This document shows positions 2,757 to 52,305 of a stretch of DNA of 64,000 nt, in pieces. The stretch is from a virus (lineage: Duplodnaviria; Heunggongvirae; Uroviricota; Caudoviricetes), in IMG/VR virus record IMGVR_UViG_3300031853_000017, positions 2,397-66,396 of that record. The stretch is one strand, 5' to 3'. Under the pieces are notes generated by a model that was not told the DNA's origin, made no database searches, and worked only from the letters and a program-made list of their open reading frames with translations. The first letter of the stretch is position 1; the number at the start of each line of letters is the position of its first letter. Position numbers and translations under genes: made by a program.

Positions 2757-3104
2757 ATGAAACCTATGAGATTAACAGAAACAGACAAGAAGCAATTAAT
2801 CGAAAACGGACATACCGAAAGAGATTTCAAACAAATCGAAGAAGCTATGCAGAAATCAAAGACGAAGTATAGCGCCGTCAATATCCAGACCGGAAAGGAA
2901 GAAACGATCCCCCCCCCCCGTGAAAGAGCAATCGAAATCTTAGGGCGCGAAACATGGTTGAGCGGAATTTCAAGAAGCGCATTTCATTGGACTGCTACAC
3001 GAGATAACATGCGCGGATATTTCAAACCGAAATCAGCGGATTATGTTGTTACTCAAATGCCGACATATATAGTGCATTTTGATTCTTCAAATCTTTTCAA
3101 ATAA
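2757..3104 (+). CDS. hypothetical protein containing in-frame C10 homopolymer (PPP)
   Basis: AAGAGGTG SD + ATG; poly-C at 2911-2920. Confidence 0.5.
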   Translation: MKPMRLTETDKKQLIENGHTERDFKQIEEAMQKSKTKYSAVNIQTGKEETIPPPRERAIEILGRETWLSGISRSAFHWTATRDNMRGYFKPKSADYVVTQMPTYIVHFDSSNLFK

Positions 3105-3119
3105 GGAGGAACAGAAAAA

Positions 3120-3407
3120 ATGACAAGAAGTGAAAAGAAAAAACTCATTGCAAACATTCAAACAACAATATGTCTATTTTACAAGGCATTGTTTTCTATG
3201 CCTAAATATGAAGGGTATCAGAAAGACTTGTTATTCGTCGGTTTTGACGTTGAGCAGGCGCGGAAAGAAGTGAGAAGAATCAGCAGCGATTTGAATTGCG
3301 ATACCACACCGGATTATAAACTGACTGCGTACTTTACCAGAACATTGGGAATACTTGCAGAATTATTATCCGCTCAAATGACAGTGCAGGATATTAAAAA
3401 TATATAA
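3120..3407 (+). CDS. hypothetical protein
   Basis: AAGGAGG SD. Confidence 0.55.
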   Translation: MTRSEKKKLIANIQTTICLFYKALFSMPKYEGYQKDLLFVGFDVEQARKEVRRISSDLNCDTTPDYKLTAYFTRTLGILAELLSAQMTVQDIKNI

Positions 3408-3423
3408 CAAGGAGGATTTCAAA

Positions 3424-3786
3424 TTGAAAGCAAAAAAGTTTGAACTGTTTATGTGTTGCTTGGGCAACGGAACAACTGTTTGCAATAAAGCCGTCAGAGA
3501 AGATGGCGATTATAAAACCGTAGCTCACATTTCAGCCGGAGGAAATATCAAATTCTATGTTCCGGAAGATTATATCCCGCAAGAGGATATGCAGATAATC
3601 CGCAAATGTGCAGACAGCGACAAAGCAAAATTCCGCGCGGATTTTGAGAAGATGGGCAAATACGAGCAATATGAAAAAATCCTTGACAGTTTGAACCATG
3701 CGGATTTTCTGAAAGTAACCGCAGACAAAAGACCATTTGACGAGCGTTTGCCGGAACTGCGAGAACACTACTATTCAATAGCATAA
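3424..3786 (+). CDS. hypothetical protein (TTG start)
   Basis: AAGGAGG SD then TTG. Confidence 0.5.
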   Translation: MKAKKFELFMCCLGNGTTVCNKAVREDGDYKTVAHISAGGNIKFYVPEDYIPQEDMQIIRKCADSDKAKFRADFEKMGKYEQYEKILDSLNHADFLKVTADKRPFDERLPELREHYYSIA

Positions 3787-3797
3787 AGGAGGACACC

Positions 3798-3974
3798 ATG
3801 AAAATCTATGCAGAAATTACCATGATGGTTGCGATCGAAACGCAGGAAACCGACGAGGACACAATTAAAGATAAGTTTGCCGATTGCGTTAGATACGCGC
3901 TTGACAATTCAGAAATCACAGATTATGAATACATCAACGTTTTGGAGCTGAGAAAGGCGGTGGAGCAGGAATGA
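3798..3974 (+). CDS. small acidic protein (58 aa)
   Basis: AAAGGAGG SD + ATG; ATGA overlap with next gene. Confidence 0.45.
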   Translation: MKIYAEITMMVAIETQETDEDTIKDKFADCVRYALDNSEITDYEYINVLELRKAVEQE

Positions 3975-4192
3975 AGAAATTGAAAGAATTAATTGACAAA
4001 ACATACGATACAGGAAAAATGCCGGTCAAAAATATGTCACTGAACGATTTCCGCTATCTGGAATACATTCATGACGAGCTGATGAAGGGCAACAGGGTTT
4101 ATTACTGTTTTGCTACGGAAATCATCAATCCGATTTTGAAGAAATGCGGAATCGCGTTCAAGCAGCACCACATGGGCTACATTGCCGGTTAA
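3971..4192 (+). CDS. hypothetical protein
   Basis: translationally coupled ORF. Confidence 0.5.
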   Translation: MKKLKELIDKTYDTGKMPVKNMSLNDFRYLEYIHDELMKGNRVYYCFATEIINPILKKCGIAFKQHHMGYIAG

Positions 4193-4221
4193 TCAAATCA
4201 GAATTTTATGGAGGTGATTAC

Positions 4222-4626
4222 ATGAAAAACGATAAATACATTTACATCGGAATTTTTGTTGACTACGATACGTTGCAGAAATTTGTCAACGATAATATCA
4301 CAAAAGACAAATTATCGCGCGTGATTGATAAACCACACGTAACATTCGCATTCAGACCTAAAGAATACAATCCTGATTTAATCGGAAAACTTGTAATGCT
4401 GAAAGTTGTCGGCTACGCTTGCGACGGCAAGAACCAGGGCTTACAGATCGAGATGGACAACACAAGTATTCCCGAAATTTTGGCAGAGTTTAAGAAAATC
4501 AAGAATCCGCATATCACGTTATCGACAAGCGAGGACGGAAAGCCGGTTGACACCGGAAAGATGAAATTCGAGCCGATTGACAATCCGTTCTACATTATGG
4601 GTACATATGACGGCTTTTCAAAGTAA
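4222..4626 (+). CDS. 2H phosphoesterase family protein (LigT / cyclic phosphodiesterase / Acb1-like)
   Basis: Two H-x-T/S-x motifs (HVTFAF, HITLST) about 80 aa apart in a 134-aa protein; GGAGGTG SD. Confidence 0.55.
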   Translation: MKNDKYIYIGIFVDYDTLQKFVNDNITKDKLSRVIDKPHVTFAFRPKEYNPDLIGKLVMLKVVGYACDGKNQGLQIEMDNTSIPEILAEFKKIKNPHITLSTSEDGKPVDTGKMKFEPIDNPFYIMGTYDGFSK

Positions 4627-4752
4627 ACATAAAAAACACAATAACGCTAAAATGCCGAGAATTTGTCTATATCGCATTTTCTCGGCAAGGAATATAATTA
4701 CACTAACATTACATAAAAACGCGATATGAGCGAAAACAAAGGGGTTTATGAC

Positions 4753-5271
4753 ATGAAGAAAATTATTTGTATGGTAATCACAATCATTATGGTTATTTCT
4801 CTTGTGGGTTGCGGAGCGAAAGACACAGCGGAAAATCAGCCGAAACAAATGGCTGCAAAATCCATTGACGAGAAATTCACATACACAATCGACGGAGAAC
4901 AACAGAAAATAACGCCGTATTATCCGATCGAGGACAATTATGTTATGAACATGGTCGAGGTTGGCTATAGTAATTTCCACATTTATGATTCACGCAACGT
5001 CACCGGCGGGATGTTGGCAAACCGCACGAAATCAGAAAAAATCATTATTGAGCGCGTTATTGCGATCATCACTAACAGAAATCGCGAAGGCGACGCAAAG
5101 GTTCTGAACACAAACGGTGATTACAATTATATCAGTTATTACGATACTGATTTGGACTACACAACGGGAACAGTCATGATTACATACCTGATGTACAATC
5201 CGGAAACAGACTATGAGGATGACATAATCGAGCGCTATGATTATGTGCTTGACCGGAATTTTGAGGATTGA
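4753..5271 (+). CDS. lipoprotein
   Basis: Signal peptide + lipobox LVGC. Confidence 0.6.
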   Translation: MKKIICMVITIIMVISLVGCGAKDTAENQPKQMAAKSIDEKFTYTIDGEQQKITPYYPIEDNYVMNMVEVGYSNFHIYDSRNVTGGMLANRTKSEKIIIERVIAIITNRNREGDAKVLNTNGDYNYISYYDTDLDYTTGTVMITYLMYNPETDYEDDIIERYDYVLDRNFED

Positions 5272-5456
5272 GGTGATTTTGTGTCTTTGCTTGCAGTCGT
5301 ATTAATTTTAATCGTTTGGGCAGTAATTGACATAATAAATGCTGCAAAACCTACAAATCCGCCAATAAAAGACATCAAAAACCATTGTAAAACAATTCAG
5401 CAACTACCAAACAAAAAAGCACGACGAAAATATTTGAATAATCTATCAAAAATTCA

Positions 5457-5485
5457 TTGACATACTGTTATAAGTATGATATAAT
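5457..5485 (+). promoter_or_regulatory. sigma70-like promoter (identical copy 2)
   Basis: TTGACAtactgttataagtatgaTATAAT. Confidence 0.6.
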
Positions 5486-5533
5486 GTTTTCAACTATATG
5501 GCAAGTTGAAAATATCCATAAGGAGGAATATCC

Positions 5534-5923
5534 ATGATTGAAAAAGAATTGATGTTGAAAATATTCAACTATGCAAACAAAGCAAGACAGAAATATATGC
5601 CAGACGTAAAAGATGAAGATTTGTGCGAAAACGGAGCTTTTTATTACATGAACGGTAACGACGGCACAGATTTTGATTGGGAATGGAACGACAGAGTTTG
5701 CGAGATAATGCAATTCTACAAATCCACCGAGTATGGCTTACTGAAAGTATATCCGCACAAAGATGGATATATTTATGGCTATATATATGGCGACGAAGGA
5801 CGAGGAAAAGCCATAGAGATTGAGCCGGAATATATCGGCATTGAGGACGCGGATTTAATTAAAGACTATTTACAAAATGAATTTGACGATCATAACATCT
5901 GGGATGGAGTTATTATCATTTAA
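5534..5923 (+). CDS. hypothetical protein
   Basis: AAGGAGG SD + ATG. Confidence 0.55.
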   Translation: MIEKELMLKIFNYANKARQKYMPDVKDEDLCENGAFYYMNGNDGTDFDWEWNDRVCEIMQFYKSTEYGLLKVYPHKDGYIYGYIYGDEGRGKAIEIEPEYIGIEDADLIKDYLQNEFDDHNIWDGVIII

Positions 5924-5944
5924 TAGTTAGAGAGGAAAAGTAAA

Positions 5945-6193
5945 ATGACATCAAAACTGCAAGAAGAAGCAAAGCAGCGCAAGAATGATTATAACGCAGA
6001 ATATGTAAAGATAACCAAAAGAGCAGCACAAAAGAAATGGGACGAAGCAAACAAAGGAAGAAAAAAACAAAAGATTTTCGTTCTATGGTTGCCGCAAGAT
6101 CAGGATATTGCTGACCATTTGCAGAAAATCAAGAATTTTTCCGATTATATTAAAGGTTTAATTCGTCGCGATATGGAGAACGAGCATGAATAA
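5945..6193 (+). CDS. basic K/E-rich small protein
   Basis: GAGAGGAAAAG SD; paralogous to next ORF. Confidence 0.5.
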   Translation: MTSKLQEEAKQRKNDYNAEYVKITKRAAQKKWDEANKGRKKQKIFVLWLPQDQDIADHLQKIKNFSDYIKGLIRRDMENEHE

Positions 6194-6413
6194 AGATGAA
6201 GCAAAAGAACGGAAAAAAGGCTATCAAAGAGAGTATGAGAAAAAGACCGGTTATGCCGCGCAAATAAAATACAGTAAAGAAAAAACAAGACGTTATACAA
6301 TCAGCGCTATGACTAATACGGAGCAAGATATAATCCAAAAGCTGGATAGCGTAGAAAACAAGAATGGATATATCAAGGCTTTAATCCGAGCAGATATAGC
6401 AAGATCAAAATGA
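6186..6413 (+). CDS. basic small protein (paralog of 5945-6193)
   Basis: Shared KERKKGYQREYEKKTGYAAQ-type motif. Confidence 0.5.
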   Translation: MNKDEAKERKKGYQREYEKKTGYAAQIKYSKEKTRRYTISAMTNTEQDIIQKLDSVENKNGYIKALIRADIARSK

Positions 6414-6467
6414 TATTGGGTTCTCTGCAAAGAGAGCCTAATATTTTTATCTTTTTTCGGAAAACGC

Positions 6468-6496
6468 TTGACATACTGTTATAAGTATGTTATTAT
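6468..6496 (+). promoter_or_regulatory. sigma70-like promoter (copy 3; -10 TATTAT)
   Basis: TTGACAtactgttataagtatgtTATTAT. Confidence 0.55.
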
Positions 6497-6524
6497 TAAA
6501 CCATAGTAAAGGAGCTGATGATTT

Positions 6525-6719
6525 ATGACGATCACAAATGAAACCAAAAGGAAAATGTATAAAGCAGCAAACGCAATTTGCGGAAAATCATATCTTCTTG
6601 ATAATAATGCTATAGTAACCAAATACAGCAAAGAATGGCAAAAGATGACGAAGATTGAACGGATAGCACACACAATTGGATTTTATGACAGCAATTCCCG
6701 CGTATTGAAAATCTTTTAG
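6525..6719 (+). CDS. hypothetical protein
   Basis: AAAGGAG SD + ATG. Confidence 0.45.
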   Translation: MTITNETKRKMYKAANAICGKSYLLDNNAIVTKYSKEWQKMTKIERIAHTIGFYDSNSRVLKIF

Positions 6720-6834
6720 GAGGTGCAGGAAAATAACTAAACTTTTCGGCGAAGCATTAGCAAACCAAATCAGAGAAACCATAGAACAGAACAAAGCCGC
6801 GATAGCTAATCGGATTGAAAGAATCAATGCCGGC

Positions 6835-7215
6835 TTGACAGACCTTGGTGATTGTTTTCTTTCCGACAAGTTAGAGCACGGAAAAATCAAAGAATGCGAA
6901 ATGCAGCTTGCTATTCTTTCCGGCGACGGTTGCGAAGAACGAGAAATCGTAATTGACGAGAACGGCGACGAAGTAGGTACACGATGGGTACAAACCAGAT
7001 ACGGAAACCGAATTGTAGGTCGTGGAATCTTTGCAAATTCCGTCAAGGCATTATGCAAGAAAACCGGATGGACAATAACGAGAAGAAGGGTTCCGGTATG
7101 GACGAAGTTTGAAACCTATACGAGCGGAATGGCTGGCGTTTATAGCGGATATTATAAGACCGTGAGATGGCACACGAACATGAAAACAGGCGAATATGTC
7201 GGCTATCCAGAATGA
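6835..7215 (+). CDS. hypothetical protein (frame open upstream to 6709; true start uncertain)
   Basis: ORF from TTG 6835; AGGAGG at 6718 with in-frame ATA 6733 but no canonical start. Confidence 0.45.
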   Translation: MTDLGDCFLSDKLEHGKIKECEMQLAILSGDGCEEREIVIDENGDEVGTRWVQTRYGNRIVGRGIFANSVKALCKKTGWTITRRRVPVWTKFETYTSGMAGVYSGYYKTVRWHTNMKTGEYVGYPE

Positions 7216-7560
7216 GGAAATATATAATTACTATACTTTGATTAAAGTACAGTCAAGAAATACTAAACATCAAAGTATAGTAATTATTAAAATAATAAGG
7301 TATGCTATACATAAGTGATTAGTATAAAGTATAGCTAATCATTTATGTATAGTATATATATATGTTTCCCAAAGGGAAACATATAATATATTATATACGT
7401 TTTTATTGTTATACTATTCTTTATTCCTTAACGTATAGTATATAATATATTATTATATAATGTATTGCTATTCATTAATGTATAGTATAATAAAGAATAG
7501 CTATTCATTAATGAATAGTATATAATATATATATATATATATAAGAGCAATTTCTGACGC
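7216..7560. repeat. AT-rich iteron region (GTATAGTATA-like repeats, palindromes, (TA)n); candidate replication origin or regulatory region
   Basis: At least 6 copies of (A/T)GTATAGTATA(T/A)AAT; perfect palindrome ATGTTTCCCAAAGGGAAACAT at 7362-7382; ATTCATTAATGAAT palindrome; (TA)10 tract. Confidence 0.45.
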
Positions 7561-7766
7561 GGCAATCAATCGAGCGGAATTTTCCTCTATGGTTTTTAAT
7601 CAGATTGATTCCCTTGTCTATGTGCCGTCTTGCGACAACACATAATATATTGTTAAAATCGTTTATTTTGGCTTGTATTGGATTTTTGCTTTAGCAATAT
7701 AATTTCATTACTTTTAGATAAAAATGCGATACAGGCGATTCTGGCTTATTTTAGAGGTGGTTTAGA

Positions 7767-8174
7767 ATGACAAAGGAAGTTTATAATAAACTGATAAGAA
7801 TTAAATCGGAGCTTGACCGCAAAATTTCCGGCGCATATTCTACTATGGATTTATTCGACATCATCATATATGTTGATTGGTGTAAGCAATATCACAAAGC
7901 ACCGGACAAGGTATTGGACACGCTTATTCTGTACATTATCGCCGTGCAGGACGGAAATTCAGACCAGATAGACAAATACTATGCCTATGACATTAAAAGC
8001 GATATGGAGGCTTATAAGCCGCGCAGCAAATATCAAGTGAGAATGAGGTCTAAGAAGCCATATAGTTCATGGGCAGTAATCAAGACGTATGACACGGAAT
8101 CCGCAGCAAAAGCATACGCCGAAAAAGCAAGCAAATCTCATTCCGATATGGTTTATAAAGTTTTTCAAAAATAA
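7767..8174 (+). CDS. hypothetical protein
   Basis: GAGGTGG SD + ATG. Confidence 0.55.
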   Translation: MTKEVYNKLIRIKSELDRKISGAYSTMDLFDIIIYVDWCKQYHKAPDKVLDTLILYIIAVQDGNSDQIDKYYAYDIKSDMEAYKPRSKYQVRMRSKKPYSSWAVIKTYDTESAAKAYAEKASKSHSDMVYKVFQK

Positions 8175-14969: not shown

Positions 14970-15509
14970 ATGAAGTATTCAGACATTCCACAATTCACAC
15001 GCAGCGGAACATATCAGGTGAATGTGCCATTAAATCATATCAAGAGAGCAATAGATGATTACATTGATAGCGGTTTGCAGATGAACCCAGATTTTCAGAG
15101 AGGGCATATCTGGACAAGAGAGCAACAAATCGCGTTCGTTGAATTTCTGTTACGCGGAGGAAAATCATCAAGAACAATCTATTTTAATTGTCCGTGGTGG
15201 CTTGGAAACTCAAAAGTCAATTCTTATAATGACTTTGTTATTGTTGATGGATTACAGCGTATAACTGCCGTTCTCGCGTTTATGAATGATGAAATACCAG
15301 CGTTTGGCGTATATCATAAAGACTATGAAGGTAGAGTACCTTTGGGCATTGATTTGATTTTTAATGTTAATGACCTGAAAACTAAAAAAGATGTTTTGAA
15401 ATGGTATATTGAAATCAATTCCGGCGGAACTCCACATACGAATCAGGAAATCGAGCGAGTCAAGCAACTATTGAAGGAAGAACAGGAAAAAAACAGTGAA
15501 CAGGCTTAA
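14970..15509 (+). CDS. ParB/Srx-fold nuclease-like protein (DUF262-like, DGLQR motif)
   Basis: PDFQRG and VDGLQRITA motifs typical of DUF262/ParB-like NTPase-nuclease domains. Confidence 0.5.
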   Translation: MKYSDIPQFTRSGTYQVNVPLNHIKRAIDDYIDSGLQMNPDFQRGHIWTREQQIAFVEFLLRGGKSSRTIYFNCPWWLGNSKVNSYNDFVIVDGLQRITAVLAFMNDEIPAFGVYHKDYEGRVPLGIDLIFNVNDLKTKKDVLKWYIEINSGGTPHTNQEIERVKQLLKEEQEKNSEQA

Positions 15510-23892: not shown

Positions 23893-24261
23893 ATGCTGAA
23901 ACAAAAACCACATTTTGGCGAAATCTGGATGTGCCATTTGACTGATAGGAGTGGCAGCGTTCAGAGCGGTTATAGACCTGTGTTCGTCATTTCCAACGAC
24001 AAAAATAATACATACAGTAACACGTTTAACATCATTCCTATTACGTCAAAGTTTAACAAAAGGAATTTACCGGTTCATGTGGTGCTGCTAAATTATTGGG
24101 TATATGGTTTGAGAGAACCAAGTACAATATTGGTGGGGCAGACAACAACCGTCGGGATTAACTGTCTTGACAAAAGAATCGGAAAAATTATTGATAGGAA
24201 CATCTTGCTTGAAATAAGTAAGGCTATGATGATTCAATTTCCCATCTTTTCTTTGAGTTAA
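23893..24261 (+). CDS. MazF/PemK-family endoribonuclease toxin-like protein
   Basis: PHFGEIWMCHL...G.RPVFVIS...IIPITS pattern typical of MazF/PemK/Kid. Confidence 0.6.
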   Translation: MLKQKPHFGEIWMCHLTDRSGSVQSGYRPVFVISNDKNNTYSNTFNIIPITSKFNKRNLPVHVVLLNYWVYGLREPSTILVGQTTTVGINCLDKRIGKIIDRNILLEISKAMMIQFPIFSLS

Positions 24262-26901: not shown

Positions 26902-27267
26902 ATGAGAGATAATAAACTTGGCTGTTTAGGATTTGTGTTGGTTGTTTTCTTGATAATAGGCGTAATTATTTTTAGTGCGTCTGCAAGCTATAACGAGCAC
27001 ACTTATACAGTTACAATCACAGACAAAGAACGTGTCTATGATAAAGATAGCAGTAAGTATTTGGTTTTCGGAGAAGATGTCGAAACCGGAGAAACAAGAG
27101 TATTTCAAAATACCGATTCGTTTTTTAGAGGAAAATTTGATAGCTCAAATGTCTATGGGAGTTTGAAAAAGGGAGAAACCTATACGGTTACTGTTGTTGG
27201 GTATAGAATCCCACTGTTTAGTTGGTATGAAAATATTATCAAATACGAAAAGGAGAGCAATAAATGA
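26902..27267 (+). CDS. membrane-anchored protein
   Basis: AGGAGG SD + ATG; N-terminal TM. Confidence 0.5.
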   Translation: MRDNKLGCLGFVLVVFLIIGVIIFSASASYNEHTYTVTITDKERVYDKDSSKYLVFGEDVETGETRVFQNTDSFFRGKFDSSNVYGSLKKGETYTVTVVGYRIPLFSWYENIIKYEKESNK

Positions 27268-27809
27268 AGAAACTACTGGTCTTAGTAGATTTTCAAAATG
27301 ATTTTATTGACGGTGCGCTCGGAACACCGGAAGCTATGGCAATCGTGCCGAATGTTATCAAGAAAGTAAAAGAATGGGACGGCGATATTTGGTTTACCGC
27401 AGATACACATAATACAAACTACTTAAATACAAATGAGGGTAAGCACCTTCCCGTTCCTCATTGTATCAGAGATACCGAAGGTTGGGAGTTACAGAAAGAC
27501 GTTGCAGAAATTCTCAGAGAGAAAATGTCACAAGAAGAATTTGAGCAAAATACATTTATTAAATATACATTTGGTTCTGAGAGATTGTGTTTGAGCATTA
27601 AGTTGTTACAATATGATTATGTTGAGTTTATTGGGCTTTGCACCGACATCTGTGTTGCAAGTAATGCAATTATGTTAAAGGCATTTATGCCTGAAACTCA
27701 GATTGCAGTTGACCCCTCATGTTGCGCCGGCGTAACTCCTGAAACTCACGAAGCGGCATTAACTACAATGAAAATGTGCCAGATTGATATTTTGGAGGTA
27801 GTAAAGTGA
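27264..27809 (+). CDS. isochorismatase-family cysteine hydrolase (nicotinamidase PncA-like)
   Basis: VLVDFQNDF (Asp), GLCTDICVASN (catalytic Cys) motifs; ATGA overlap with upstream gene. Confidence 0.65.
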   Translation: MKKLLVLVDFQNDFIDGALGTPEAMAIVPNVIKKVKEWDGDIWFTADTHNTNYLNTNEGKHLPVPHCIRDTEGWELQKDVAEILREKMSQEEFEQNTFIKYTFGSERLCLSIKLLQYDYVEFIGLCTDICVASNAIMLKAFMPETQIAVDPSCCAGVTPETHEAALTTMKMCQIDILEVVK

Positions 27810-28663
27810 TTCAAGTAAACCGCAAAACTGTTGAATTATCACGTTTTCCAGACGGAACACTTCATCTTGTTCCCGAAATTGATTTATCAAGTGCAGAATA
27901 TCACATTACAATTTCGTGGTATTATGAAGATGATAGTGAAATGGCAGCGTTACTGTTTTTGACAAGGTATTTCAAGGAAAATGGCTTTGAAGTTATTCTG
28001 TTCATGCCATATATCCCAAACGCAAGAATGGATAGGGTTAAAAATGAGAATGATGTTTTCACGCTCAAATATTTTGCGGACTTCATCAATTCACTTCATT
28101 TTTCTCTCGTTATAGTTCTCGACCCACATTCAGCTGTTAGTGAAGCCTTAATTAATAATATTATTGTTTTCACTCCTATTGATTACATAGAAAAAGCATT
28201 TGAAAGAGTCAATAAAGAAACGAATGGGGAAATCATTGCATTTTATCCCGATGAAGGCGCAATGAAACGATATTCCGAAATCATTGATTGCCCGTATGCG
28301 TTTGGAGTTAAAAGGCGCGATTGGTCTACCGGAAAAATTCTCGGATTGGACATTATCGGCGATGAAAACTATTTGCGCGGGAAAAATATAATCATTATTG
28401 ATGACATTAGCAGCAAGGGCGGTACATTCTATCATTCAGCAAAGAAACTCAAAGAGGTTGGCGTAAACAAAATTTTCCTCTATGTTACTCATTGTGAGAA
28501 AACAATATTAGAGGGGGAAGTGTTTACAAGTGGGTTGATCGACAAGGTATTTACAACAAATTCTATCTTTACTCCTGCCGCGCTTGAAACGGCAAAAAGT
28601 AAAGGTTTATCGGATAAAATTGAGGTGTTTGAAATTGAAAACGAATCCTATGCTACTGATTGA
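27806..28663 (+). CDS. ribose-phosphate pyrophosphokinase (Prs)-like protein; candidate ADPR-PP synthetase (Adps) of NARP1
   Basis: PYIPNARMDR (Prs PYxxYARQDR-like) and IIIDDISSKGGT PRPP-binding motif; overlaps flanking genes (coupled). Confidence 0.7.
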   Translation: MIQVNRKTVELSRFPDGTLHLVPEIDLSSAEYHITISWYYEDDSEMAALLFLTRYFKENGFEVILFMPYIPNARMDRVKNENDVFTLKYFADFINSLHFSLVIVLDPHSAVSEALINNIIVFTPIDYIEKAFERVNKETNGEIIAFYPDEGAMKRYSEIIDCPYAFGVKRRDWSTGKILGLDIIGDENYLRGKNIIIIDDISSKGGTFYHSAKKLKEVGVNKIFLYVTHCEKTILEGEVFTSGLIDKVFTTNSIFTPAALETAKSKGLSDKIEVFEIENESYATD

Positions 28664-30104
28664 TTTTTATAAGGCTGTTCATGCGGAAATGTTGCCGCAG
28701 AATATCACAAAATCAGTATCTTATTTTACACCACGCATGAGCCGCGTTAAGCGTTGGGATAAGGTTGTGATGTTTGGATTGCAAGGTTTTATCAAGGAAT
28801 ATCTAATTGATTTTTTCAATGATAATTTCTTCAATGTCCCGCTCGAAACCGTTATGGGCGAATACACAAGAATCATGGACAACACGCTTGGCAAAAATGC
28901 TTATAATCCAAAGAAGATTGAGAATTTACACAATCTTGGATATTTGCCGATTGAGATTGTAGCATTACCAGAGGGAACGCTTGTGCCTATGCACGTTCCG
29001 ATGTTCGGGATTACTAATACCCACAAGGATTTTGCGTGGCTTCCGCAGTCGCTTGAGTCTTTGATCTCGGCAGAAATGTGGCATCCGATGCTTGCGGCGA
29101 ATGTCGGTTATACATACCGTCAGATTGTCAACAAGTATTATGACGAAACCTGTGATGATAACATTCCACGAGCAAAAGCACTTGGAGCGTTTGATTTCCG
29201 TGGTGAGGAATGTTTGCAGAGCGCGACAAAGGCTGGCGCGGGTTGGCTGTTATCTTTCTTGAATACCGCAACGGTTCCGGCAATTCCGTACCTTGAAAAT
29301 TATTACAACTGTGATTGCACAAAAGAGCCTGTCGGTTTTGGTTCACCATCCACGGAACATTCCGTTATGTGTAGCAATTTCGCGGTTGACGGAGATGAAA
29401 TCACGCTGCTCCGCAGATTGTTGACAGAAATTTATCCGAACACTTCTTTCTCGGCGGTGCTTGACAGCTACGATTATTGGAATGTCATTGACAATATCCT
29501 TCCTCAGTTAAAGCCTGAAATTCTCGCACATAATGGCTGTATGCTCATGCGCGGAGATAGCGGCGATTGCATTGAGGTCGTAACCAAGACGGTATTTAAG
29601 TTGTGGGATATTTTCGGTGGCACGGTCAATAGCAAGGGTTATAAGGTACTTGACCCGCATGTTAAAGCTATTTACGGCGATTCTATCACTGTGCAGCGTT
29701 GCGAGATAATCTATGAAATCCTCAAAGAAAATGGATTTGCTTGCTCAAATGTTGCACTCGGCGTTGGTTCATTCTCATTCCAGTGCATTGAAGAAGATGG
29801 AATATTGAAGCCGTTCACACGCGACACGTTCAGTTCTTGCATTAAGGCTACTTATTGTGAGATTGATGATAAGCCTGTTCCGATTTTCAAGAATCCAAAA
29901 GATGGCGGATTTAAGAAATCTCAAAAGGGTTGTTGTGTTGTTTATAAATTTATGAACAACATTGTTTATAAGGACGAATATACTTGGAAAGAGGCAAACG
30001 AATTACCCTATCAGTTGCTTGAAACCGTATTTAAGGATGGAAAAATCGTTAAAGAGCAAACGCTTTCAGAAGTGCGCTCAGTATTGCACGGAGGTAAGTT
30101 TTAA
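28650..30104 (+). CDS. NAMPT-family phosphoribosyltransferase; candidate Namat of NARP1
   Basis: Colinear similarity to NAMPT: LLIDFYKAVH, LPIEIVALPEG, NSKGYKVLDP...GDS, conserved His in HSVM. Confidence 0.75.
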   Translation: MLLIDFYKAVHAEMLPQNITKSVSYFTPRMSRVKRWDKVVMFGLQGFIKEYLIDFFNDNFFNVPLETVMGEYTRIMDNTLGKNAYNPKKIENLHNLGYLPIEIVALPEGTLVPMHVPMFGITNTHKDFAWLPQSLESLISAEMWHPMLAANVGYTYRQIVNKYYDETCDDNIPRAKALGAFDFRGEECLQSATKAGAGWLLSFLNTATVPAIPYLENYYNCDCTKEPVGFGSPSTEHSVMCSNFAVDGDEITLLRRLLTEIYPNTSFSAVLDSYDYWNVIDNILPQLKPEILAHNGCMLMRGDSGDCIEVVTKTVFKLWDIFGGTVNSKGYKVLDPHVKAIYGDSITVQRCEIIYEILKENGFACSNVALGVGSFSFQCIEEDGILKPFTRDTFSSCIKATYCEIDDKPVPIFKNPKDGGFKKSQKGCCVVYKFMNNIVYKDEYTWKEANELPYQLLETVFKDGKIVKEQTLSEVRSVLHGGKF

Positions 30105-30892
30105 TGGGATTCAATGCAAATAAAGTTAAAGACGATATTGTTGTCTGGATTCGCAAGATGTTTGAAGAAAACGGTAAAGGTTGTAATGCAGTTATCGGAA
30201 TCTCAGGCGGCAAAGACTCAAGCGTAACCGCCGCATTATGCGTTGCTGCTTTAGGCAAAGATAGAGTAATCGGCGTTCTTATGCCAAATGGTAAGCAAGA
30301 GGATAAAAACGTTGCAGTTGAATTGTGTAACCATTTAGGCATTAACCATATCGAGATAAATGTCAAAAATGCGTTTGATTCCATTTTGGAGCAGATTGAC
30401 GAAATTTATATTTCAAAAGTGGATTCTTATATCCCGATTTCTATTTCCGATCAAACCACTATCAACCTTCCTCCGAGATTGCGCATGGCTACGTTATATG
30501 CAGTATCTCAATCTGTTGGTGGTCGTGTCATGAACACTTGTAATCTATCAGAGGATTATGTTGGATATGCGACCAGATACGGCGATTCTGCCGGAGATTT
30601 TGCACCTTTGGCTAATCTGACATCTGATGAAGTTATCGCGGTTGGTGCTGCTTGCGGACTACCAAATTCATTCATCTATAAAACTCCGTCAGATGGGCTT
30701 TGCGGCAAAACTGACGAAGATAATCTTGGGTTTACCTATAAAGTTCTTAATAAGTATATTAGGACTGGTATTTGTGAAGATAGCAAGATCAAGGAAAGAA
30801 TTGTCGCTATGCACAAGAAGAATAGGTTTAAGTTGCAGCCTATGCCGGCATTTCCATACAATGCCGGAAATGGAAGAAATAAACTACGATAA
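30104..30892 (+). CDS. nadE: NH3-dependent NAD+ synthetase (NadE)
   Basis: PP-loop GISGGKDSS; C-terminal similarity to NadE; TAATG overlap. Confidence 0.75.
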   Translation: MGFNANKVKDDIVVWIRKMFEENGKGCNAVIGISGGKDSSVTAALCVAALGKDRVIGVLMPNGKQEDKNVAVELCNHLGINHIEINVKNAFDSILEQIDEIYISKVDSYIPISISDQTTINLPPRLRMATLYAVSQSVGGRVMNTCNLSEDYVGYATRYGDSAGDFAPLANLTSDEVIAVGAACGLPNSFIYKTPSDGLCGKTDEDNLGFTYKVLNKYIRTGICEDSKIKERIVAMHKKNRFKLQPMPAFPYNAGNGRNKLR

Positions 30893-30960: not shown

Positions 30961-31253
30961 ATAAGAGAAGTCAGGAGATAACACCTTGACTTAAAAAATT
31001 CTCTTGTAAAGTAAACATAAAAAACATAATTAAATAATCGTAAGTAGTGAGTATAGAGCCTTTTGAAAAATAGCGAAACATCATTAGAATAATTAGTTCA
31101 TCTCCCTTCAAAGGAGATAGTCTTGGTTAAAGTCCGAGGTGTTGTTTCAAAGTTTGGATAAAGAAAAAGATAACATCGCGCGGGTTATCTCCCACAGGTG
31201 AAAGTCCTGTGGCTTACGTTGATATAGATATTACATTACAAAGGGAGTTACAA

Positions 31254-35798: not shown

Positions 35799-37352
35799 AT
35801 GTCATTTTTTACTGAACTTCAAAACAACATTAACGAGATCAACAATTTGCAGCGTACCGAAAATGGCGCTCTTGGTTACAAATCGACCGGCAAGACTATC
35901 CTTGACATGAACTTTGACGTTCCGAAATATCGTCATTCTTCGCCGGAAGAGATTCTCGCCAAGTTTAATCAGGCGCGTTCGGAAAATCCCACGCTTGCTA
36001 TCCTGTGGACATTCTTTGCAAGAGATGTTCGCGGCGGTCTTGGAGAAAGAAGATTGTTCAGAATCCTGTTCCGCGAAATCTGCAATTCTGATACCGAAAC
36101 TGCAAAGAAGGTTATTCCTTTGGTTTCTGAATACGGCAGATGGGACGATTTGATTTATTCTACAATCAATACTCCTGCATGGGAAAAGACCATTGAGGTT
36201 GTCAAGGCGCAGTTGCTTGAAGATACCGATAACGTTAAGGCAAACAAGCCTATTACGTTGCTCGGAAAGTGGCTGCCCAGCGAGAGAACTTCAAGCGTAC
36301 AAACAAGAGAAACCGCGCGGAAGATTGCACACGACATCGGTTTGCCGATTAAGGATTACAACCGTATGCTTGTCGCTTTGCGTAAGTATTCAAATGTCGT
36401 TGAGGTAAAAATGAGCGCAAGAGAATGGGGCGCGATTGATTATTCAGCCGTTCCTTCCTATGCAAACTTGAAGTATAACAGTGCTTTCCTTCGCAACGAC
36501 GAAGAAAGACGTAGAAAGTACCTTGCGGCACTCACAAAGGGCGAAACCAAAATCAATGCTTCTACTGCTTATCCGCACGACATTGTGAGGAAGTACAAGA
36601 TTGGTTGGAGTTATGCCAATCATGCAGACGAAGCGATCGAAGCAATGTGGAAAGCGTTGCCTGACATGGGCGGCTTGGAAAACACAATCGTTGTTGCAGA
36701 TGGTTCCGGCTCAATGTATGGCGGTGGAAATCCTTCGCCGATTGACGTTGCGAATGCCCTTGCGATTTACTGCGCCGAGCATAACAAAGGTGAGTTTTAC
36801 AACAAGTATATCACATTCTCGCGTACCCCGAAGTTTGTTGATTTAAGCAAAGGCAAGACTTTGTTGGATAAACTCAACATTGCAAGTCGCCATAATGAGG
36901 TTGCCAACACGAATATCGAGGCTGTCTTTGACATTATTCTTGATACGGCGATCGAGAGCAAGGCGGCGCAAGAAGATATTCCGAAGTCAATTCTTATCAT
37001 TTCCGATATGGAATTTGATAGTTGCGCGGAATCTAATTCATCATCTCGTCGTGGAACGACAAGTTATTATTCCATGCGCAGTTACAACCGCCCTGATTCA
37101 ACTCTGTTTAAGCAGATTGAGAAGAAGTATGCGGCGGCTGGATATAAAATTCCGCGCGTGGTATTTTGGAATGTTGCTTCAAGAACAAGCACAATCCCAA
37201 TGATTGAAAATGATTTGGGTGTAACGCTTGTCAGCGGTTATTCCGTATCAATCTTCAAGATGATTATGGACGGAGAAACAGACCCATTCCAGAATCTTGT
37301 TAATATGCTGATGTCTGAGAGGTATCAGCCGGTTTACAAGGCAATTCAATAA
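35799..37352 (+). CDS. Ro60/Rsr-like protein (TROVE-like N-terminal region + vWA MIDAS domain)
   Basis: 517 aa; C-terminal MIDAS VVADGSGSM and ILIISDME; overall size and domain order as Ro60/Rsr. Confidence 0.5.
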   Translation: MSFFTELQNNINEINNLQRTENGALGYKSTGKTILDMNFDVPKYRHSSPEEILAKFNQARSENPTLAILWTFFARDVRGGLGERRLFRILFREICNSDTETAKKVIPLVSEYGRWDDLIYSTINTPAWEKTIEVVKAQLLEDTDNVKANKPITLLGKWLPSERTSSVQTRETARKIAHDIGLPIKDYNRMLVALRKYSNVVEVKMSAREWGAIDYSAVPSYANLKYNSAFLRNDEERRRKYLAALTKGETKINASTAYPHDIVRKYKIGWSYANHADEAIEAMWKALPDMGGLENTIVVADGSGSMYGGGNPSPIDVANALAIYCAEHNKGEFYNKYITFSRTPKFVDLSKGKTLLDKLNIASRHNEVANTNIEAVFDIILDTAIESKAAQEDIPKSILIISDMEFDSCAESNSSSRRGTTSYYSMRSYNRPDSTLFKQIEKKYAAAGYKIPRVVFWNVASRTSTIPMIENDLGVTLVSGYSVSIFKMIMDGETDPFQNLVNMLMSERYQPVYKAIQ

Positions 37353-40863: not shown

Positions 40864-41724
40864 TTGACGGGAGAATACATAGTGAGTAAGAAGCGAAGCG
40901 AATTTGATAAACGGATGAAAAAATACGAATATGTTAGCCGGACATATTTGACAACACGAACGCCCGTAATTATTAGAATTGACGGCAAATGCTTTCATTC
41001 CTTTACTCGCGGATTTAAGAAACCATTTGATGAAATTCTTTCCGGCACAATGCAAGAAACAATGAAATATCTTTGCGAGAACATCCAGGGCTGCGTTCTC
41101 GGCTACACACAGTCGGACGAAATCACATTGATTTTGGTTGATTATAAAGATATTGATACTTGTGCTTGGTTTGATTACAACATTCAGAAATGCGCAAGTG
41201 TTGCCGCGAGTATGGCTACTATGGCTTTTAACACATTATTCAAGGAAATAAATGATGATTGGTGGTTTGGTTTAACGAATAAATGGGTCGAGTCAGGAAT
41301 GACTAAAAATACATTTATTCCAGAGCCAGATATAGAACTATATAACAAGCATAGTTTAGCTATAAATCAAAAAGGCGCAATGTTTGATGCTCGTGTTTTC
41401 AACATTCCTAAAGAGGAAGTATGCAACAACATTTTATGGCGACAACAAGACGCAACCCGAAATTCAATTCAAATGGTGGGTCATGCAAATTTTTCTGATA
41501 AGCAAATGCACGGCAAAAACACAAGCCAAATTCAGGATATGCTTATGTTTGAAAAAGGCATTAACTGGAATGATTTCCCGACAAAATATAAGCGCGGAAG
41601 TTGTTGCGTCCGTAAAGTGAATGAACAGACCGGCAGAAGTGAATGGGTTATCGACAATGAAATCCCGATATTTAAGGGCGAGGGAAGAAAATATATTGAT
41701 AATCTCGTTTTTGTCGGCGATTAA
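40864..41724 (+). CDS. Thg1-like tRNA-His guanylyltransferase / 3'-5' polymerase (TLP)
   Basis: KYEYVSRTY...IIRIDGKCFHSF...GYTQSDEITLIL colinear with Thg1 N-terminal catalytic region. Confidence 0.7.
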   Translation: MTGEYIVSKKRSEFDKRMKKYEYVSRTYLTTRTPVIIRIDGKCFHSFTRGFKKPFDEILSGTMQETMKYLCENIQGCVLGYTQSDEITLILVDYKDIDTCAWFDYNIQKCASVAASMATMAFNTLFKEINDDWWFGLTNKWVESGMTKNTFIPEPDIELYNKHSLAINQKGAMFDARVFNIPKEEVCNNILWRQQDATRNSIQMVGHANFSDKQMHGKNTSQIQDMLMFEKGINWNDFPTKYKRGSCCVRKVNEQTGRSEWVIDNEIPIFKGEGRKYIDNLVFVGD

Positions 41725-42475: not shown

Positions 42476-42617
42476 GCGTTAGGGGGTGCTTTATGTACCC
42501 CCTTTATTTTGTTGGTGAAAAGAATGAATGATACATTTTTATGGTTTTTGATTATTCCGGCGCTAATTTATGTCGTTTGGGCTTTGTTATCAGATGATTC
42601 AGAAAGCGAGGATAACA

Positions 42618-43385
42618 ATGATTTGGATAACGGGTGACTGTCATGCAGAATTTAATAGATTCAGCACAAAGAGATTTCCCGCGCAAAAGGAAATGACAAA
42701 AGATGATTTCGTCATTATCTGCGGAGATTTCGCCGGAATTTGGGATTATAAAATATCAAGTAATGAGGAACGATATTGGCTTGATTGGCTAAACGAAAAA
42801 CCATTTACAATTTTATTTGTTGACGGCAATCACGAAAATCACGAAAGACTCAAGCATTTTCTGCGAGTAAAATTTCATGGCGGTATGGCACATAGAATCC
42901 GCCCAAATATTTATCACTTAATGCGTGGTTATGTTTTTGAATTTGAAGGTAAGAAATTCTTTACTTTTGGCGGCGCTCAAAGCCACGATATTCAAGACGG
43001 AATATTATATATAAAAGATTATGAAAGTCTTACCGCAACGGTTGATGATTACAATAAGAGAACACGCAAAGGACAAATGCTGCGGATTGACGGTATTTCT
43101 TGGTGGAAAGATGAATTACCAACTGCGGCAGAAATGAAGCGCGGAATCGCTAATCTCGAAAAGGTAAACTGGAAGGTCGATTATGTAATTACGCATTGTC
43201 CGCCGAGAGAAGTTTGTAAATGGTTTGGATATTATTCTACTGATAAATTGATTGATTATTTTGATGAATTGCTTGATAAAGGATTGAAATTTAAGCAATT
43301 TTGGTCGGGACACTTACACAAGAACCAATACAACATATACGGTAAATACAATGTTTTATTTGAGGATATTGTGAGGTTGTTGTAA
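42618..43385 (+). CDS. calcineurin-like metallophosphoesterase
   Basis: ITGDCH, ICGDFAG, VDGNHENHE motifs. Confidence 0.65.
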   Translation: MIWITGDCHAEFNRFSTKRFPAQKEMTKDDFVIICGDFAGIWDYKISSNEERYWLDWLNEKPFTILFVDGNHENHERLKHFLRVKFHGGMAHRIRPNIYHLMRGYVFEFEGKKFFTFGGAQSHDIQDGILYIKDYESLTATVDDYNKRTRKGQMLRIDGISWWKDELPTAAEMKRGIANLEKVNWKVDYVITHCPPREVCKWFGYYSTDKLIDYFDELLDKGLKFKQFWSGHLHKNQYNIYGKYNVLFEDIVRLL

Positions 43386-46029: not shown

Positions 46030-46158
46030 ATGGGATTTGTTATCGGCTTATTTGTTGGTGGATTCATTGGCGTTTCTTTAATGTATTTAATGGCTTATGC
46101 TAAAGATGATTCTACTAAACCAAATAAGAAGGACGAAACAAAAGAGGACGATAAGTAA
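46030..46158 (+). CDS. small membrane protein (42 aa)
   Basis: AAGGAGAAA SD; single TM. Confidence 0.35.
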   Translation: MGFVIGLFVGGFIGVSLMYLMAYAKDDSTKPNKKDETKEDDK

Positions 46159-46751
46159 TGAATTATTATATTTCTGATACACATTTCGGTCATAAAAATA
46201 TCATTGGTTTTGATTGTCGTCCATTCAGAAATACGCTCGAAATGAAACAAACGCTAATCAAAAATTGGAATAGCAGAGTAGTCAAAGAAGATGTAGTTTA
46301 CATTTTGGGTGATTTCTGTTGGAGCAAAGAAAAAAGTGATTGGCTAAAAATCCTCGACCAACTAAACGGTAGTAAGTATTTAATTCGCGGAAATCACGAT
46401 TTGAAGAACTTTCCTGTGGAAGTTAAAAATAAATTTTGTCAAATCACGGACTATAAAGAAATCACTGATAATGGCAAACGAATTATTATGAGCCATTATC
46501 CGATTATGTTTTATCGGTCAAGCTATGGAAATGATGTTTGGCATTTTTGCGGTCATACGCATAACAGAACAGCCGAGGAATACAAGCGGAGAGAATATGT
46601 CTTAGATTTAATCAAAAACAGAAAACAAGACTTTGATAACAAAGGTCATATCATCAATGTAGGTTGTATGATGGATTACATGGGTTATACTCCGCGAACG
46701 GCTGATGAACTAATTGACTGGTGGAACGATTATTACAAAAGCTATATCTAA
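46158..46751 (+). CDS. calcineurin-like metallophosphoesterase
   Basis: ISDTHFGH, LGDF, RGNHD motifs. Confidence 0.65.
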   Translation: MNYYISDTHFGHKNIIGFDCRPFRNTLEMKQTLIKNWNSRVVKEDVVYILGDFCWSKEKSDWLKILDQLNGSKYLIRGNHDLKNFPVEVKNKFCQITDYKEITDNGKRIIMSHYPIMFYRSSYGNDVWHFCGHTHNRTAEEYKRREYVLDLIKNRKQDFDNKGHIINVGCMMDYMGYTPRTADELIDWWNDYYKSYI

Positions 46752-50310: not shown

Positions 50311-50589
50311 ATGACTTTGAGAAGATTATGTTCTAAATGTGCCAAATGTCCAAAGGTTGAAACTTGCAATCACAAGCGTATGGAAATGGTCGGATTTTTA
50401 GAGCCAACATCGGCAACGGCTAATTCAGAGTTGTCTAATTCTGCAATAGTTCCACACAAATACAGGCAAGTGAAAATTGCTCCGAACACAACCGTAACGA
50501 TAGATTTAGAGGATATAAAAAAAGAGATAGAACAGTCTATAGCAAAACAAGCCGGACTATATGGAGACTTTTTCAAAAGTTGTACTTGA
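50311..50589 (+). CDS. hypothetical protein
   Basis: GGAGGTGG SD. Confidence 0.5.
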   Translation: MTLRRLCSKCAKCPKVETCNHKRMEMVGFLEPTSATANSELSNSAIVPHKYRQVKIAPNTTVTIDLEDIKKEIEQSIAKQAGLYGDFFKSCT

Positions 50590-50596
50590 TGGAGGC

Positions 50597-50791
50597 GAGC
50601 GAGTAATGGCAAATTTAACGAAAAGTATAAAGAAATGCCCGTTCTGCGGTGGCAAAGCAGGACTATATCAGGATTATATGGGCTTCTGGCATGTTCAATG
50701 TGATAATTGCGGTATAGGTACATCAAAAAACGACATTAAAGAATTGGCAGTAAAATCTTGGAACCGGAGGGTTGAAAATGGCAAGTTGTAA
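50597..50791 (+). CDS. zinc-ribbon protein
   Basis: GGAGG SD; CPFCGG...CDNCG. Confidence 0.45.
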   Translation, partial: ERVMANLTKSIKKCPFCGGKAGLYQDYMGFWHVQCDNCGIGTSKNDIKELAVKSWNRRVENGKL

Positions 50792-51822: not shown

Positions 51823-52305
51823 ATGAGAATTTATAACATGAATAATATTTCAATAGGCGTTCTCAGTAGATTTGACGCTTCACAATATTGTAAAGAGCCG
51901 CACAAAACCGATTCTGCAATCATTTCGATTTCTACGCCCAATATTGACTATTTTTATTTAAAAGTTGAACCAACTGACGAAAATAGGGTTGTGGCTATTT
52001 TGAATCTTGAATTTATGGACGCTGACCGTCCGGGAGATAATGATGTTTATGGAAATCCCACAACAATCAGTGATCTTATGAGTGACAAGGACGCTAAAAC
52101 AGTTGTCGATTTTGTTGAGACGTATAAGGACAAGAGGATATTGGTTCATTGTGACGCTGGAATTTCACGTTCATCTGCGGTAGCTGCGGCGATACTGAAA
52201 CATTATACGGGCGACGACAGCATGATTTTTGATAGCCGTTGGTATAATCCGAACAGATGGGTTTACCGCAAAGTGCTTGAGACATTTGAGAGTGAGGTTG
52301 ATTAA
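51823..52305 (+). CDS. Cys-based protein phosphatase (PTP/DSP-like)
   Basis: HCDAGISRS = HCx5R(S) active-site signature. Confidence 0.6.
   Translation: MRIYNMNNISIGVLSRFDASQYCKEPHKTDSAIISISTPNIDYFYLKVEPTDENRVVAILNLEFMDADRPGDNDVYGNPTTISDLMSDKDAKTVVDFVETYKDKRILVHCDAGISRSSAVAAAILKHYTGDDSMIFDSRWYNPNRWVYRKVLETFESEVD

Follow-up and report, generated by a model that had tools for sequence, protein, structure and literature searches.

The CorA effector of type III-B CRISPR systems is activated by SAM-AMP and is obligately accompanied by a degradative enzyme, sometimes in the form of a fusion protein, and in the reconstituted system the immunity conferred by CorA needs this degrading enzyme (PMC10600005, PMC12255297). 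In a survey of type III loci, the companions of CorA were NrN, DEDD, the lyase, and Csm6-2 (PMC11229360), and the SAM-AMP lyase of phages has been proposed to act as an anti-CRISPR (PMC10600005, PMC12255297). The family described here resembles NrN, DEDD, and SAM-AMP lyase in that a small hydrolytic enzyme adjoins or is fused to a CRISPR-type CorA, and it resembles the phage lyase in having solo phage-borne copies that are candidate anti-CRISPRs (PMC10600005, PMC12255297). It differs from these partners in fold, which is DHH (NrN), DEDD, or PII-like for the known enzymes and 2H for the present one. Moreover, unlike the known CorA systems, the cassettes of a CorA-like gene and a 2H gene lie mostly outside recognisable type III CRISPR loci. 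Our literature search found no report linking CorA to a 2H phosphoesterase.

Ring nucleases (Crn1-3/Csx3 and AcrIII-1) share with the candidate role of the 2H family the concept of switching off cyclic oligoadenylate signalling, and one member of the family carries Csx3/Crn3 within the same polypeptide, although the folds are unrelated. Acb1 is a small, phage-encoded, metal-independent 2H enzyme with two catalytic histidines, as is predicted for the protein studied here, and the proposed logic is the same, namely the destruction of an immune signalling nucleotide (PMC9117128). In Acb1, a flexible C-terminal lid closes over the cyclic dinucleotide (residues 145-152 including W147 in the FBB1 enzyme; PMC9117128). 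LigT/ThpR and the other bacterial and archaeal 2'-5' RNA ligase-type CPDases likewise belong to the 2H superfamily and are small soluble proteins, with 2',3'-cyclic phosphates as predicted common ground. The model of the 2H protein comes close in fold to the catalytic domain of CNPase (the vertebrate enzyme, goldfish RICH, and the fungal Trl1 CPD), but no sequence-profile relationship between the two can be detected. The 2H protein is a minimal core of 134 aa, whereas the CNPase catalytic domain comprises ~210 aa, and the 2H family is bacterial and phage-borne, whereas CNPase is eukaryotic.

Here, we describe a new, unannotated family within the known 2H superfamily that has a new genomic association. 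One of its genes lies in a 64-kb stretch of Caudoviricetes DNA, which is called the window below. On a conservative reading, this 2H family is large (~1,180 clusters at 50% identity), unannotated, and spread over bacteria and phages and, as judged from a predicted model and among the comparisons made here, no other prokaryotic protein comes as close in structure to the catalytic domain of CNPase. Should the family degrade the nucleotide that activates CorA-type effectors, it would be a new enzyme class for type III CRISPR/CorA signalling and, in its phage-borne form, a new candidate counter-defence in gut and rumen ecosystems. Furthermore, this would draw attention to some 30 orphan cassettes of a CorA-like and a 2H gene, which bear on the puzzle of why CorA immunity strictly requires a degrading enzyme (PMC10600005, PMC12255297).

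The gene and its conserved motifs

The 2H gene (Table 1) starts with an ATG at 4222, ends with a TAA at 4624-4626, and is a genuine ORF. A longer version that begins at 4144 in a mechanical ORF list runs into the upstream gene (3971-4192); MKNDKYI is the start in all homologues and in the gene calls on five metagenome contigs. The gene belongs to a run of ~40 small same-strand genes that are almost without annotation, an arrangement typical of phage accessory regions.

The protein contains two H-x-T/S-x motifs with hydrophobic x at the distance of ~50-80 residues that characterizes the 2H superfamily. Their histidines and threonines (H39, T41, H97, and T99) are invariant in the 28 homologues of alignment A1 and in a set of 115 stand-alone members (28-51% identity to the query), where they are the sole invariant columns, and the two HxT motifs are kept in 184 of 184 family members examined. 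Because both motifs are kept across such diverse homologues, a chance pattern is ruled out. Alignment A1 further reveals a signature loop between the motifs, in which G64 and N71 are invariant, and a second signature directly past the second HxT motif, in which G106 and D110 never vary and conservation reaches at least 90% at K107, P108, V109, and T111.

Table 1. Positions of the 2H gene and its motifs, of other genes in the window, and of family members discussed in the text
Feature	Sequence	Position	Strand	Basis
CDS, 134 aa + stop; CNPase-like 2H phosphoesterase of an unannotated family	Window	4222..4626	+	
Shine-Dalgarno-like GGAGG, 7 nt ahead of the ATG	Window	4210..4214	+	Read from sequence
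First catalytic motif H39-V-T41-F (HVTF, residues 39-42)	Window	4336..4347	+	Alignments and model
Signature loop V-G-Y-A-C-D-G-K-N-Q-G-L-Q (residues 61-73)	Window	4402..4440	+	Alignment A1
Second catalytic motif H97-I-T99-L (HITL, residues 97-100)	Window	4510..4521	+	Alignments and model
Signature D-G-K-P-V-D-T-G (residues 105-112)	Window	4534..4557	+	Alignment A1
GmrSD_N-like protein	Window	14970-15509		
PemK/MazF-like endoribonuclease toxin	Window	23893-24261		
NAD salvage, four consecutive genes: isochorismatase/nicotinamidase-like, PRPP-synthetase-like, NAMPT, NAD synthase	Window	27264-30892		
tRNA-SeC, 72 nt, anticodon TCA	Window	31077-31148		ARAGORN
DUF2828/DUF7788/VWA protein, embedded among tRNA genes	Window	35799-37352		
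Thg1-like protein (tRNA 5'-end repair family)	Window	40882-41724		
Metallophosphoesterase	Window	42570-43385		
Metallophosphoesterase	Window	46158-46751		
Lar restriction-alleviation-like protein	Window	50561-50791		
Dual-specificity-phosphatase-like protein	Window	51838-52305		
2H-Csx3 fusion locus with Amidase_3 gene	L007	31-2658		
CorA-like-2H fusion locus with cas2 and RT-cas1	L009	1192-14566		
CorA-like-2H fusion locus with Ser/Thr-kinase and PP2C-type genes	L002	1158-9084		
CorA-like-2H fusion locus with Ser/Thr-kinase and PP2C-type genes	L089	1917-5755		L089 by eye
Homologue with ~80-aa C-terminal extension	L001	8001-8648		
Homologue with ~80-aa C-terminal extension	L077	5998-6648		
Homologues with ~80-aa C-terminal extension	P0018, P0021, P0022, P0025, P0026, P0040			
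Saccharibacteria N-terminal domain, ~200 residues N-terminal to the 2H domain	L037, L038, L045, L049, L055, L057, L067, L071, L022			

Relationship to described 2H enzymes

Sequence searches do not connect the protein to any described family. At E <= 10, Pfam returned nothing for the window protein beyond a spurious match to FERM_C (E 0.25), and neither the Acb1 model (PF23474) nor the LigT models (PF02834/PF13563) matched it even at this threshold; the Pfam CNPase and tRNA_lig_CPD models gave no match to it either. The best PHROGs match of the window protein was an unknown family at E 0.054, and PADLOC, NCBIfam, and the PDB sequences (phmmer) yielded no match for the 2H domain. When profiles of the family (28-member A1 and 115-member A4) were run against the PDB sequences at E <= 10, one spurious Hcp match was all that was retrieved, and a marginal LigT_PEase match (E 0.16) was seen in one fusion member. 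The 50,697 GenBank phage records contained no nucleotide match to positions 3000-8000 of the window and no relative of the protein by tblastn. With no match in deposited phage genomes, the family is therefore known from metagenomes and MAGs only.

From the family alignment, AlphaFold2 confidently (pLDDT 94.4, pTM 0.87) predicts a two-lobed alpha+beta fold of the 2H kind, in which HVTF and HITL are located on beta strands 39-44 and 97-102, respectively, that line the central cleft. On this model, the fold comparison is unambiguous for superfamily membership and informative for the assignment to a branch. The first 48 Foldseek matches in the PDB were CNPase structures, followed by goldfish RICH and structure 6u05 of a fungal RNA kinase, so that the predicted model is structurally close to the CNPase catalytic domain. 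LigT-type CPDases scored 6.0-6.9, Acb1 6.4 and 6.0, the poxvirus cGAMP PDE 6.2, MHV ns2 6.1, and Usb1, AKAP18, and the plant CPDase 5-5.5; the likeness of the model to Acb1 is half that to CNPase. Among the viral models in BFVD, the best matches were giant-virus proteins including a 765-aa Marseillevirus 'RNA ligase' (TMq 0.59-0.68), and the Acb1 entries aligned poorly (TMq 0.43-0.47). The protein is thus best described, on the strength of its predicted structure, as a minimal 2H phosphoesterase that groups structurally with CNPase and Trl1-CPD.

The preliminary description of this DNA had noted two HxT/S motifs in 2H spacing within a 134-aa protein and had placed the protein in the 2H phosphoesterases; both statements hold, the second on account of the motifs, their family-wide conservation, and the AlphaFold fold. 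It had left the choice between an Acb1-like and a LigT-like identity to a structural comparison. That comparison does give a 2H fold, but the nearest structure is neither of the two but CNPase, and together with the missing matches to the respective Pfam models this places the protein outside both the Acb1 and the LigT family.

An Acb1-like function against CBASS, that is cleavage of the 3'-5' bonds of cGAMP, cA3, or other CD-NTase products, could still be imagined for a solo, phage-encoded gene within an accessory-gene block, and the distant family member P0109 has a second 2H domain that matches Pfam Acb1 and 2_5_RNA_ligase2 as well as LigT_PEase. We nevertheless consider such a function improbable. 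Besides the missing PF23474 match and the distance in structure, the last beta strand of the model spans residues 117-132 and the chain stops two residues beyond it; because no C-terminal tail follows this strand, a lid of the Acb1 type is absent. Furthermore, the cellular relatives are linked to CorA-like proteins and Csx3 and not to CD-NTase operons.

Family size, distribution, and domain fusions

In an exhaustive profile search, the family amounted to 1,181 representatives of clusters formed at 50% identity, which stem mainly from gut and rumen metagenomes; 565 of the 1,181 had E-values below 1e-10. Domain fusions were surveyed in the best 150 of the 1,181 representatives. The majority of these 150 are stand-alone proteins of 125-160 aa, but 11 carry one common partner of 400-460 aa, which precedes the 2H domain in some and follows it in others. 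In five such fusions tested, the PADLOC CorA-like models matched at E 1e-11 to 1e-13, and Pfam CorA models had no match in the five fusion proteins at E <= 1. In one family member, the fusion partner is Csx3/Crn3, a cA4 ring nuclease (PF09620, 9e-13; TIGR02579, 2e-11), and three are fused to P-loop kinases, which are N-terminal in P0114 and L040 and in the opposite order in P0093. The best NCBIfam match of the P0114 kinase is bacterial Pnkp (TIGR04075, 5e-18), and the Pnkp-like kinase of P0114 and L040 matches AAA_33 (2e-22).

A number of further architectures were observed. The gene for the 2H-Csx3 fusion is found on a 3.8-kb contig, where it follows an Amidase_3 (endolysin-like) gene two genes further upstream; if this contig is a phage, the fusion would be a two-headed candidate anti-type III enzyme. 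P0122 (354 aa) possesses a C-terminal signature of Pol-beta-type nucleotidyltransferases, GS…DIDIV (Pfam NTP_transf_2, weak at E 0.027), and may, going by this signature, combine a synthase with a hydrolase. A subgroup of viral and metagenomic homologues shares a conserved C-terminal extension of ~80 aa (…ELxxxCDGGWxVxxVWIDxEDIFxIP…AHxxx) for which no precomputed Pfam domain is on record. The metagenomic protein P0042 (3,251 aa) is built from 28 or more tandem repeats, each of which corresponds to the C-terminal half of the domain alone (profile positions ~79-134, including the second HxT); it may be a highly unusual repeat protein or an artefact of assembly. A DHH/NrN-like tail with a GGH-like motif, at first suspected in P0157, was dropped as searches of Pfam, PADLOC, and the PDB sequences did not support it.

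Association with CorA-like membrane proteins

The pattern GY[AG][CN][DN]GxN[QE]G, derived from the signature loop, was used to collect genome loci, and with one genome kept per species, 67 loci were obtained from gut and rumen Clostridia (Intestinimonas, Oscillospiraceae, and Lachnospiraceae) and from many Candidatus Saccharibacteria. A CorA-like gene is located directly upstream on the same strand in 21 of the 67, and encodes 392-523 aa (~450 aa); its called ORF overlaps that of the 2H gene by up to 75 nt or is separated from it by up to 81 nt. At least four further loci are adjacent pairs missed by the crude gene caller, and seven are fusions, which brings the linkage to about 33 of the 67 loci (about 26 adjacent and seven fused), or roughly three quarters of the loci outside Saccharibacteria. 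All 22 adjacent partners tested match both PADLOC CorA models (best E 6e-21). The match covers mainly the C-terminal half of the model (profile 90-409 in the fusion P0112), and the presumed ligand-binding N-domain may therefore differ. The cellular members of the 2H family are thus predominantly encoded beside or fused to a CRISPR-type CorA-like protein, and the window gene itself is solo.

The cassettes surveyed do not lie in type III (cas10) loci. Among 101 genes neighbouring 19 cassettes, a Pfam scan detected no cas families, no cas10 or cmr genes flank the pair in the 19 loci surveyed, and the other fusion loci are likewise non-CRISPR. The flanking genes are unrelated genes with housekeeping functions (for example aaRS, aldolase, and PGK). 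A setting of this kind, with no consistent defence neighbours, and the occurrence of the domain on many Saccharibacteria chromosomes would suit an enzyme for nucleotide scavenging that hydrolyses free 2',3'-cyclic NMPs from RNA turnover next to an ordinary CorA-like channel or transporter. We regard this as very unlikely. The partners match defence-library CorA models and, in the five fusions scanned, none of the Pfam CorA models; the fusion to Csx3 and the site beside cas2 and RT-cas1 described below are hard to explain by scavenging; and there would be no reason for phages to keep the gene, which is retained in several phage lineages at 77-91% identity with its motifs intact.

The sole partial exception to the placement outside CRISPR loci is L009, in which a CorA-like-2H fusion gene directly follows cas2 and RT-cas1. 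Downstream of it are a 708-aa protein, a 1,172-aa protein (precomputed Pfam Tubulin_2), and two more large proteins; the 14.5 kb contain no CRISPR array, and PADLOC and PDB searches found no Cas10, Cmr, or Cas13 among the large proteins. Reading of the sequences by eye suggests a VWA-like protein with a TM segment for the 708-aa product and membrane association for the two further large proteins. Judging from this gene content, L009 may be an uncharacterised conflict system. In L002 and L089, two different CorA-like-2H fusions adjoin Ser/Thr-kinase and PP2C-type genes, which may be a recurrent association; L002 also encodes a 1,123-aa double-AAA+/M41-peptidase protein that matches the PADLOC models IetA and DolB. 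The downstream genes of L009 and L089 have no homology to each other.

In ~24 Saccharibacteria loci, the 2H domain occurs without a CorA-like gene. In the nine Saccharibacteria loci listed in Table 1, it is fused to a conserved N-terminal domain of ~190 aa with the pattern …GRTKDGAEVYDR.DSHFHSEGG…YRKGRSG.TPMVKNRE…PREPWDP…, which matched nothing in Pfam or NCBIfam when a representative of this type (P0151) was searched. No TM segments are predicted in these fusion proteins. The idea that their N-domains are truncated CorA was rejected: the only truncated CorA-like protein is the metagenomic P0110, whose N-terminal part has BLAST matches to CorA-like ORFs only and none to the Saccharibacteria fusion proteins. 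A gene of the size of a TrmB-like regulator recurs near the Saccharibacteria fusions.

RNA-end healing as an alternative

Enzymes of the CNPase/Trl1 fold are classically 2',3'-cyclic phosphodiesterases for RNA ends, and an RNA-end healing or modifying enzyme of this type is the main rival reading. It would open the 2',3'-cyclic phosphate ends that host anticodon nucleases, toxins, or HEPN RNases leave on tRNA or mRNA, and would thereby serve tRNA repair by the phage or alter the ends such that host pathways cannot use them. The architecture of CNPase/Trl1 healing enzymes is reproduced by the kinase fusions P0114 and L040 and, in reverse order, by P0093. Moreover, the window encodes 15 tRNAs (ARAGORN), a Thg1-like protein, a PemK/MazF-like RNase, and a DUF2828/VWA gene amid the tRNAs, and the last three genes suggest, as far as their sequences tell, a strong investment in RNA damage and repair.

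The window protein itself has no kinase domain, and the dominant partner in its family is a CorA-like membrane protein rather than a kinase or ligase: kinase fusions account for three of the 150 representatives and one of the 67 genome loci, compared with 11 and 33 for CorA-like partners. Neither the window nor the viral loci contain a polynucleotide kinase homologue (PNK-like), no RNA ligase family was found among the annotated proteins of the window, and the 2H gene is ~36 kb away from the tRNA/Thg1 region. RtcB is not known to join ends with the 2'-phosphate that CNPase-type enzymes produce; such ends require Tpt1 and a ligase of the Trl1 type, and a lone CPDase therefore does not make a repair pathway. 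Taken together, we find a role in RNA-end healing rather doubtful.

Signal degradation as the proposed function

The phage copies of the 2H gene, in the window and in seven viral loci, are solo, and a search of all frames of the 64-kb window and of these loci with a CorA-like HMM gave no match. In a neighbour-joining tree, which is rough, shallow, and poorly resolved, the window protein clusters with three further viral copies, and the cellular proteins closest to it (43-45% identity) are encoded next to CorA-like genes. By analogy to the known CorA companions, we tentatively favour, with a chance that we would put somewhat below even, that the phage enzyme degrades a signal nucleotide and so acts as an anti-defence protein against a CorA-type effector. 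Its catalytic activity, substrate, and anti-defence role are what we infer in the following.

In gut and rumen Clostridia, the 2H family is the dedicated partner of a CorA-like membrane protein related to the type III CRISPR CorA effectors, encoded directly after it in the operon or joined to it in one polypeptide with the domains in both possible orders, and would fill beside this putative effector the degrading role of NrN, DEDD, and SAM-AMP lyase. The enzyme is predicted to be independent of metals. It would use a 2'-OH as nucleophile on the neighbouring phosphodiester, which yields a 2',3'-cyclic phosphate, and alternatively or in addition it would hydrolyse such a cyclic phosphate, in either case inactivating the activating nucleotide. 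The phage would have retained only the enzyme and not the CorA-like partner, and, expressed from the block of small accessory genes, the enzyme could destroy the host's signal before the membrane effector fires. This would follow the logic of Acb1, AcrIII-1, and the phage SAM-AMP lyase, but with CorA-type or type III-type signalling as the target.

Because the cellular homologues are paired or fused with CorA-like proteins and Csx3, the immune context is, as far as gene association indicates, more likely CorA/type III CRISPR-style signalling than CBASS. Accordingly worded, the signal-degrading anti-defence idea of the preliminary description survives through these links, but not in the CBASS context it had named; its RNA-repair idea finds kinase fusions elsewhere in the family but no kinase homologue in the window and no RNA ligase among the annotated families there. 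The NAD salvage cluster and Lar in the same window also count in favour of anti-defence. Counted against signal degradation are the position of most cassettes outside CRISPR loci, the Saccharibacteria branch without a CorA partner, the mostly C-terminal coverage of the PADLOC CorA match, the low resolution of the tree, the CNPase/Trl1-type fold, and the fusions to Pnkp-like kinases.

The wider proposal, that the 2H family is a fourth, structurally unrelated class of CorA partner which gut and rumen phages have captured as a solo anti-CRISPR or anti-defence protein against CorA/SAM-AMP-type signalling, is possible but on the unlikely side. As a corollary, the Clostridia cassettes would be free-standing modules of effector and off-switch, whose signal would be made elsewhere in the genome or would be a hitherto undescribed one, such as a molecule with a 2',3'-cyclic phosphate. 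Both the defence role of the cassettes and their signal synthase are putative.

Other genes of the window

The four-gene NAD salvage cluster resembles the NAD+ reconstitution pathways by which phages counter NAD-depleting defence. The GmrSD_N-like and Lar-like proteins, the two metallophosphoesterases, and the dual-specificity-phosphatase-like protein are further candidate defence or anti-defence accessory genes, and the window also encodes an integrase and an NAD-dependent ligase. The first of the 15 tRNA genes was called as tRNA-SeC by ARAGORN; it may be a UGA suppressor tRNA, with possible stop-codon recoding. The ORFs of the window read fine with table 11.
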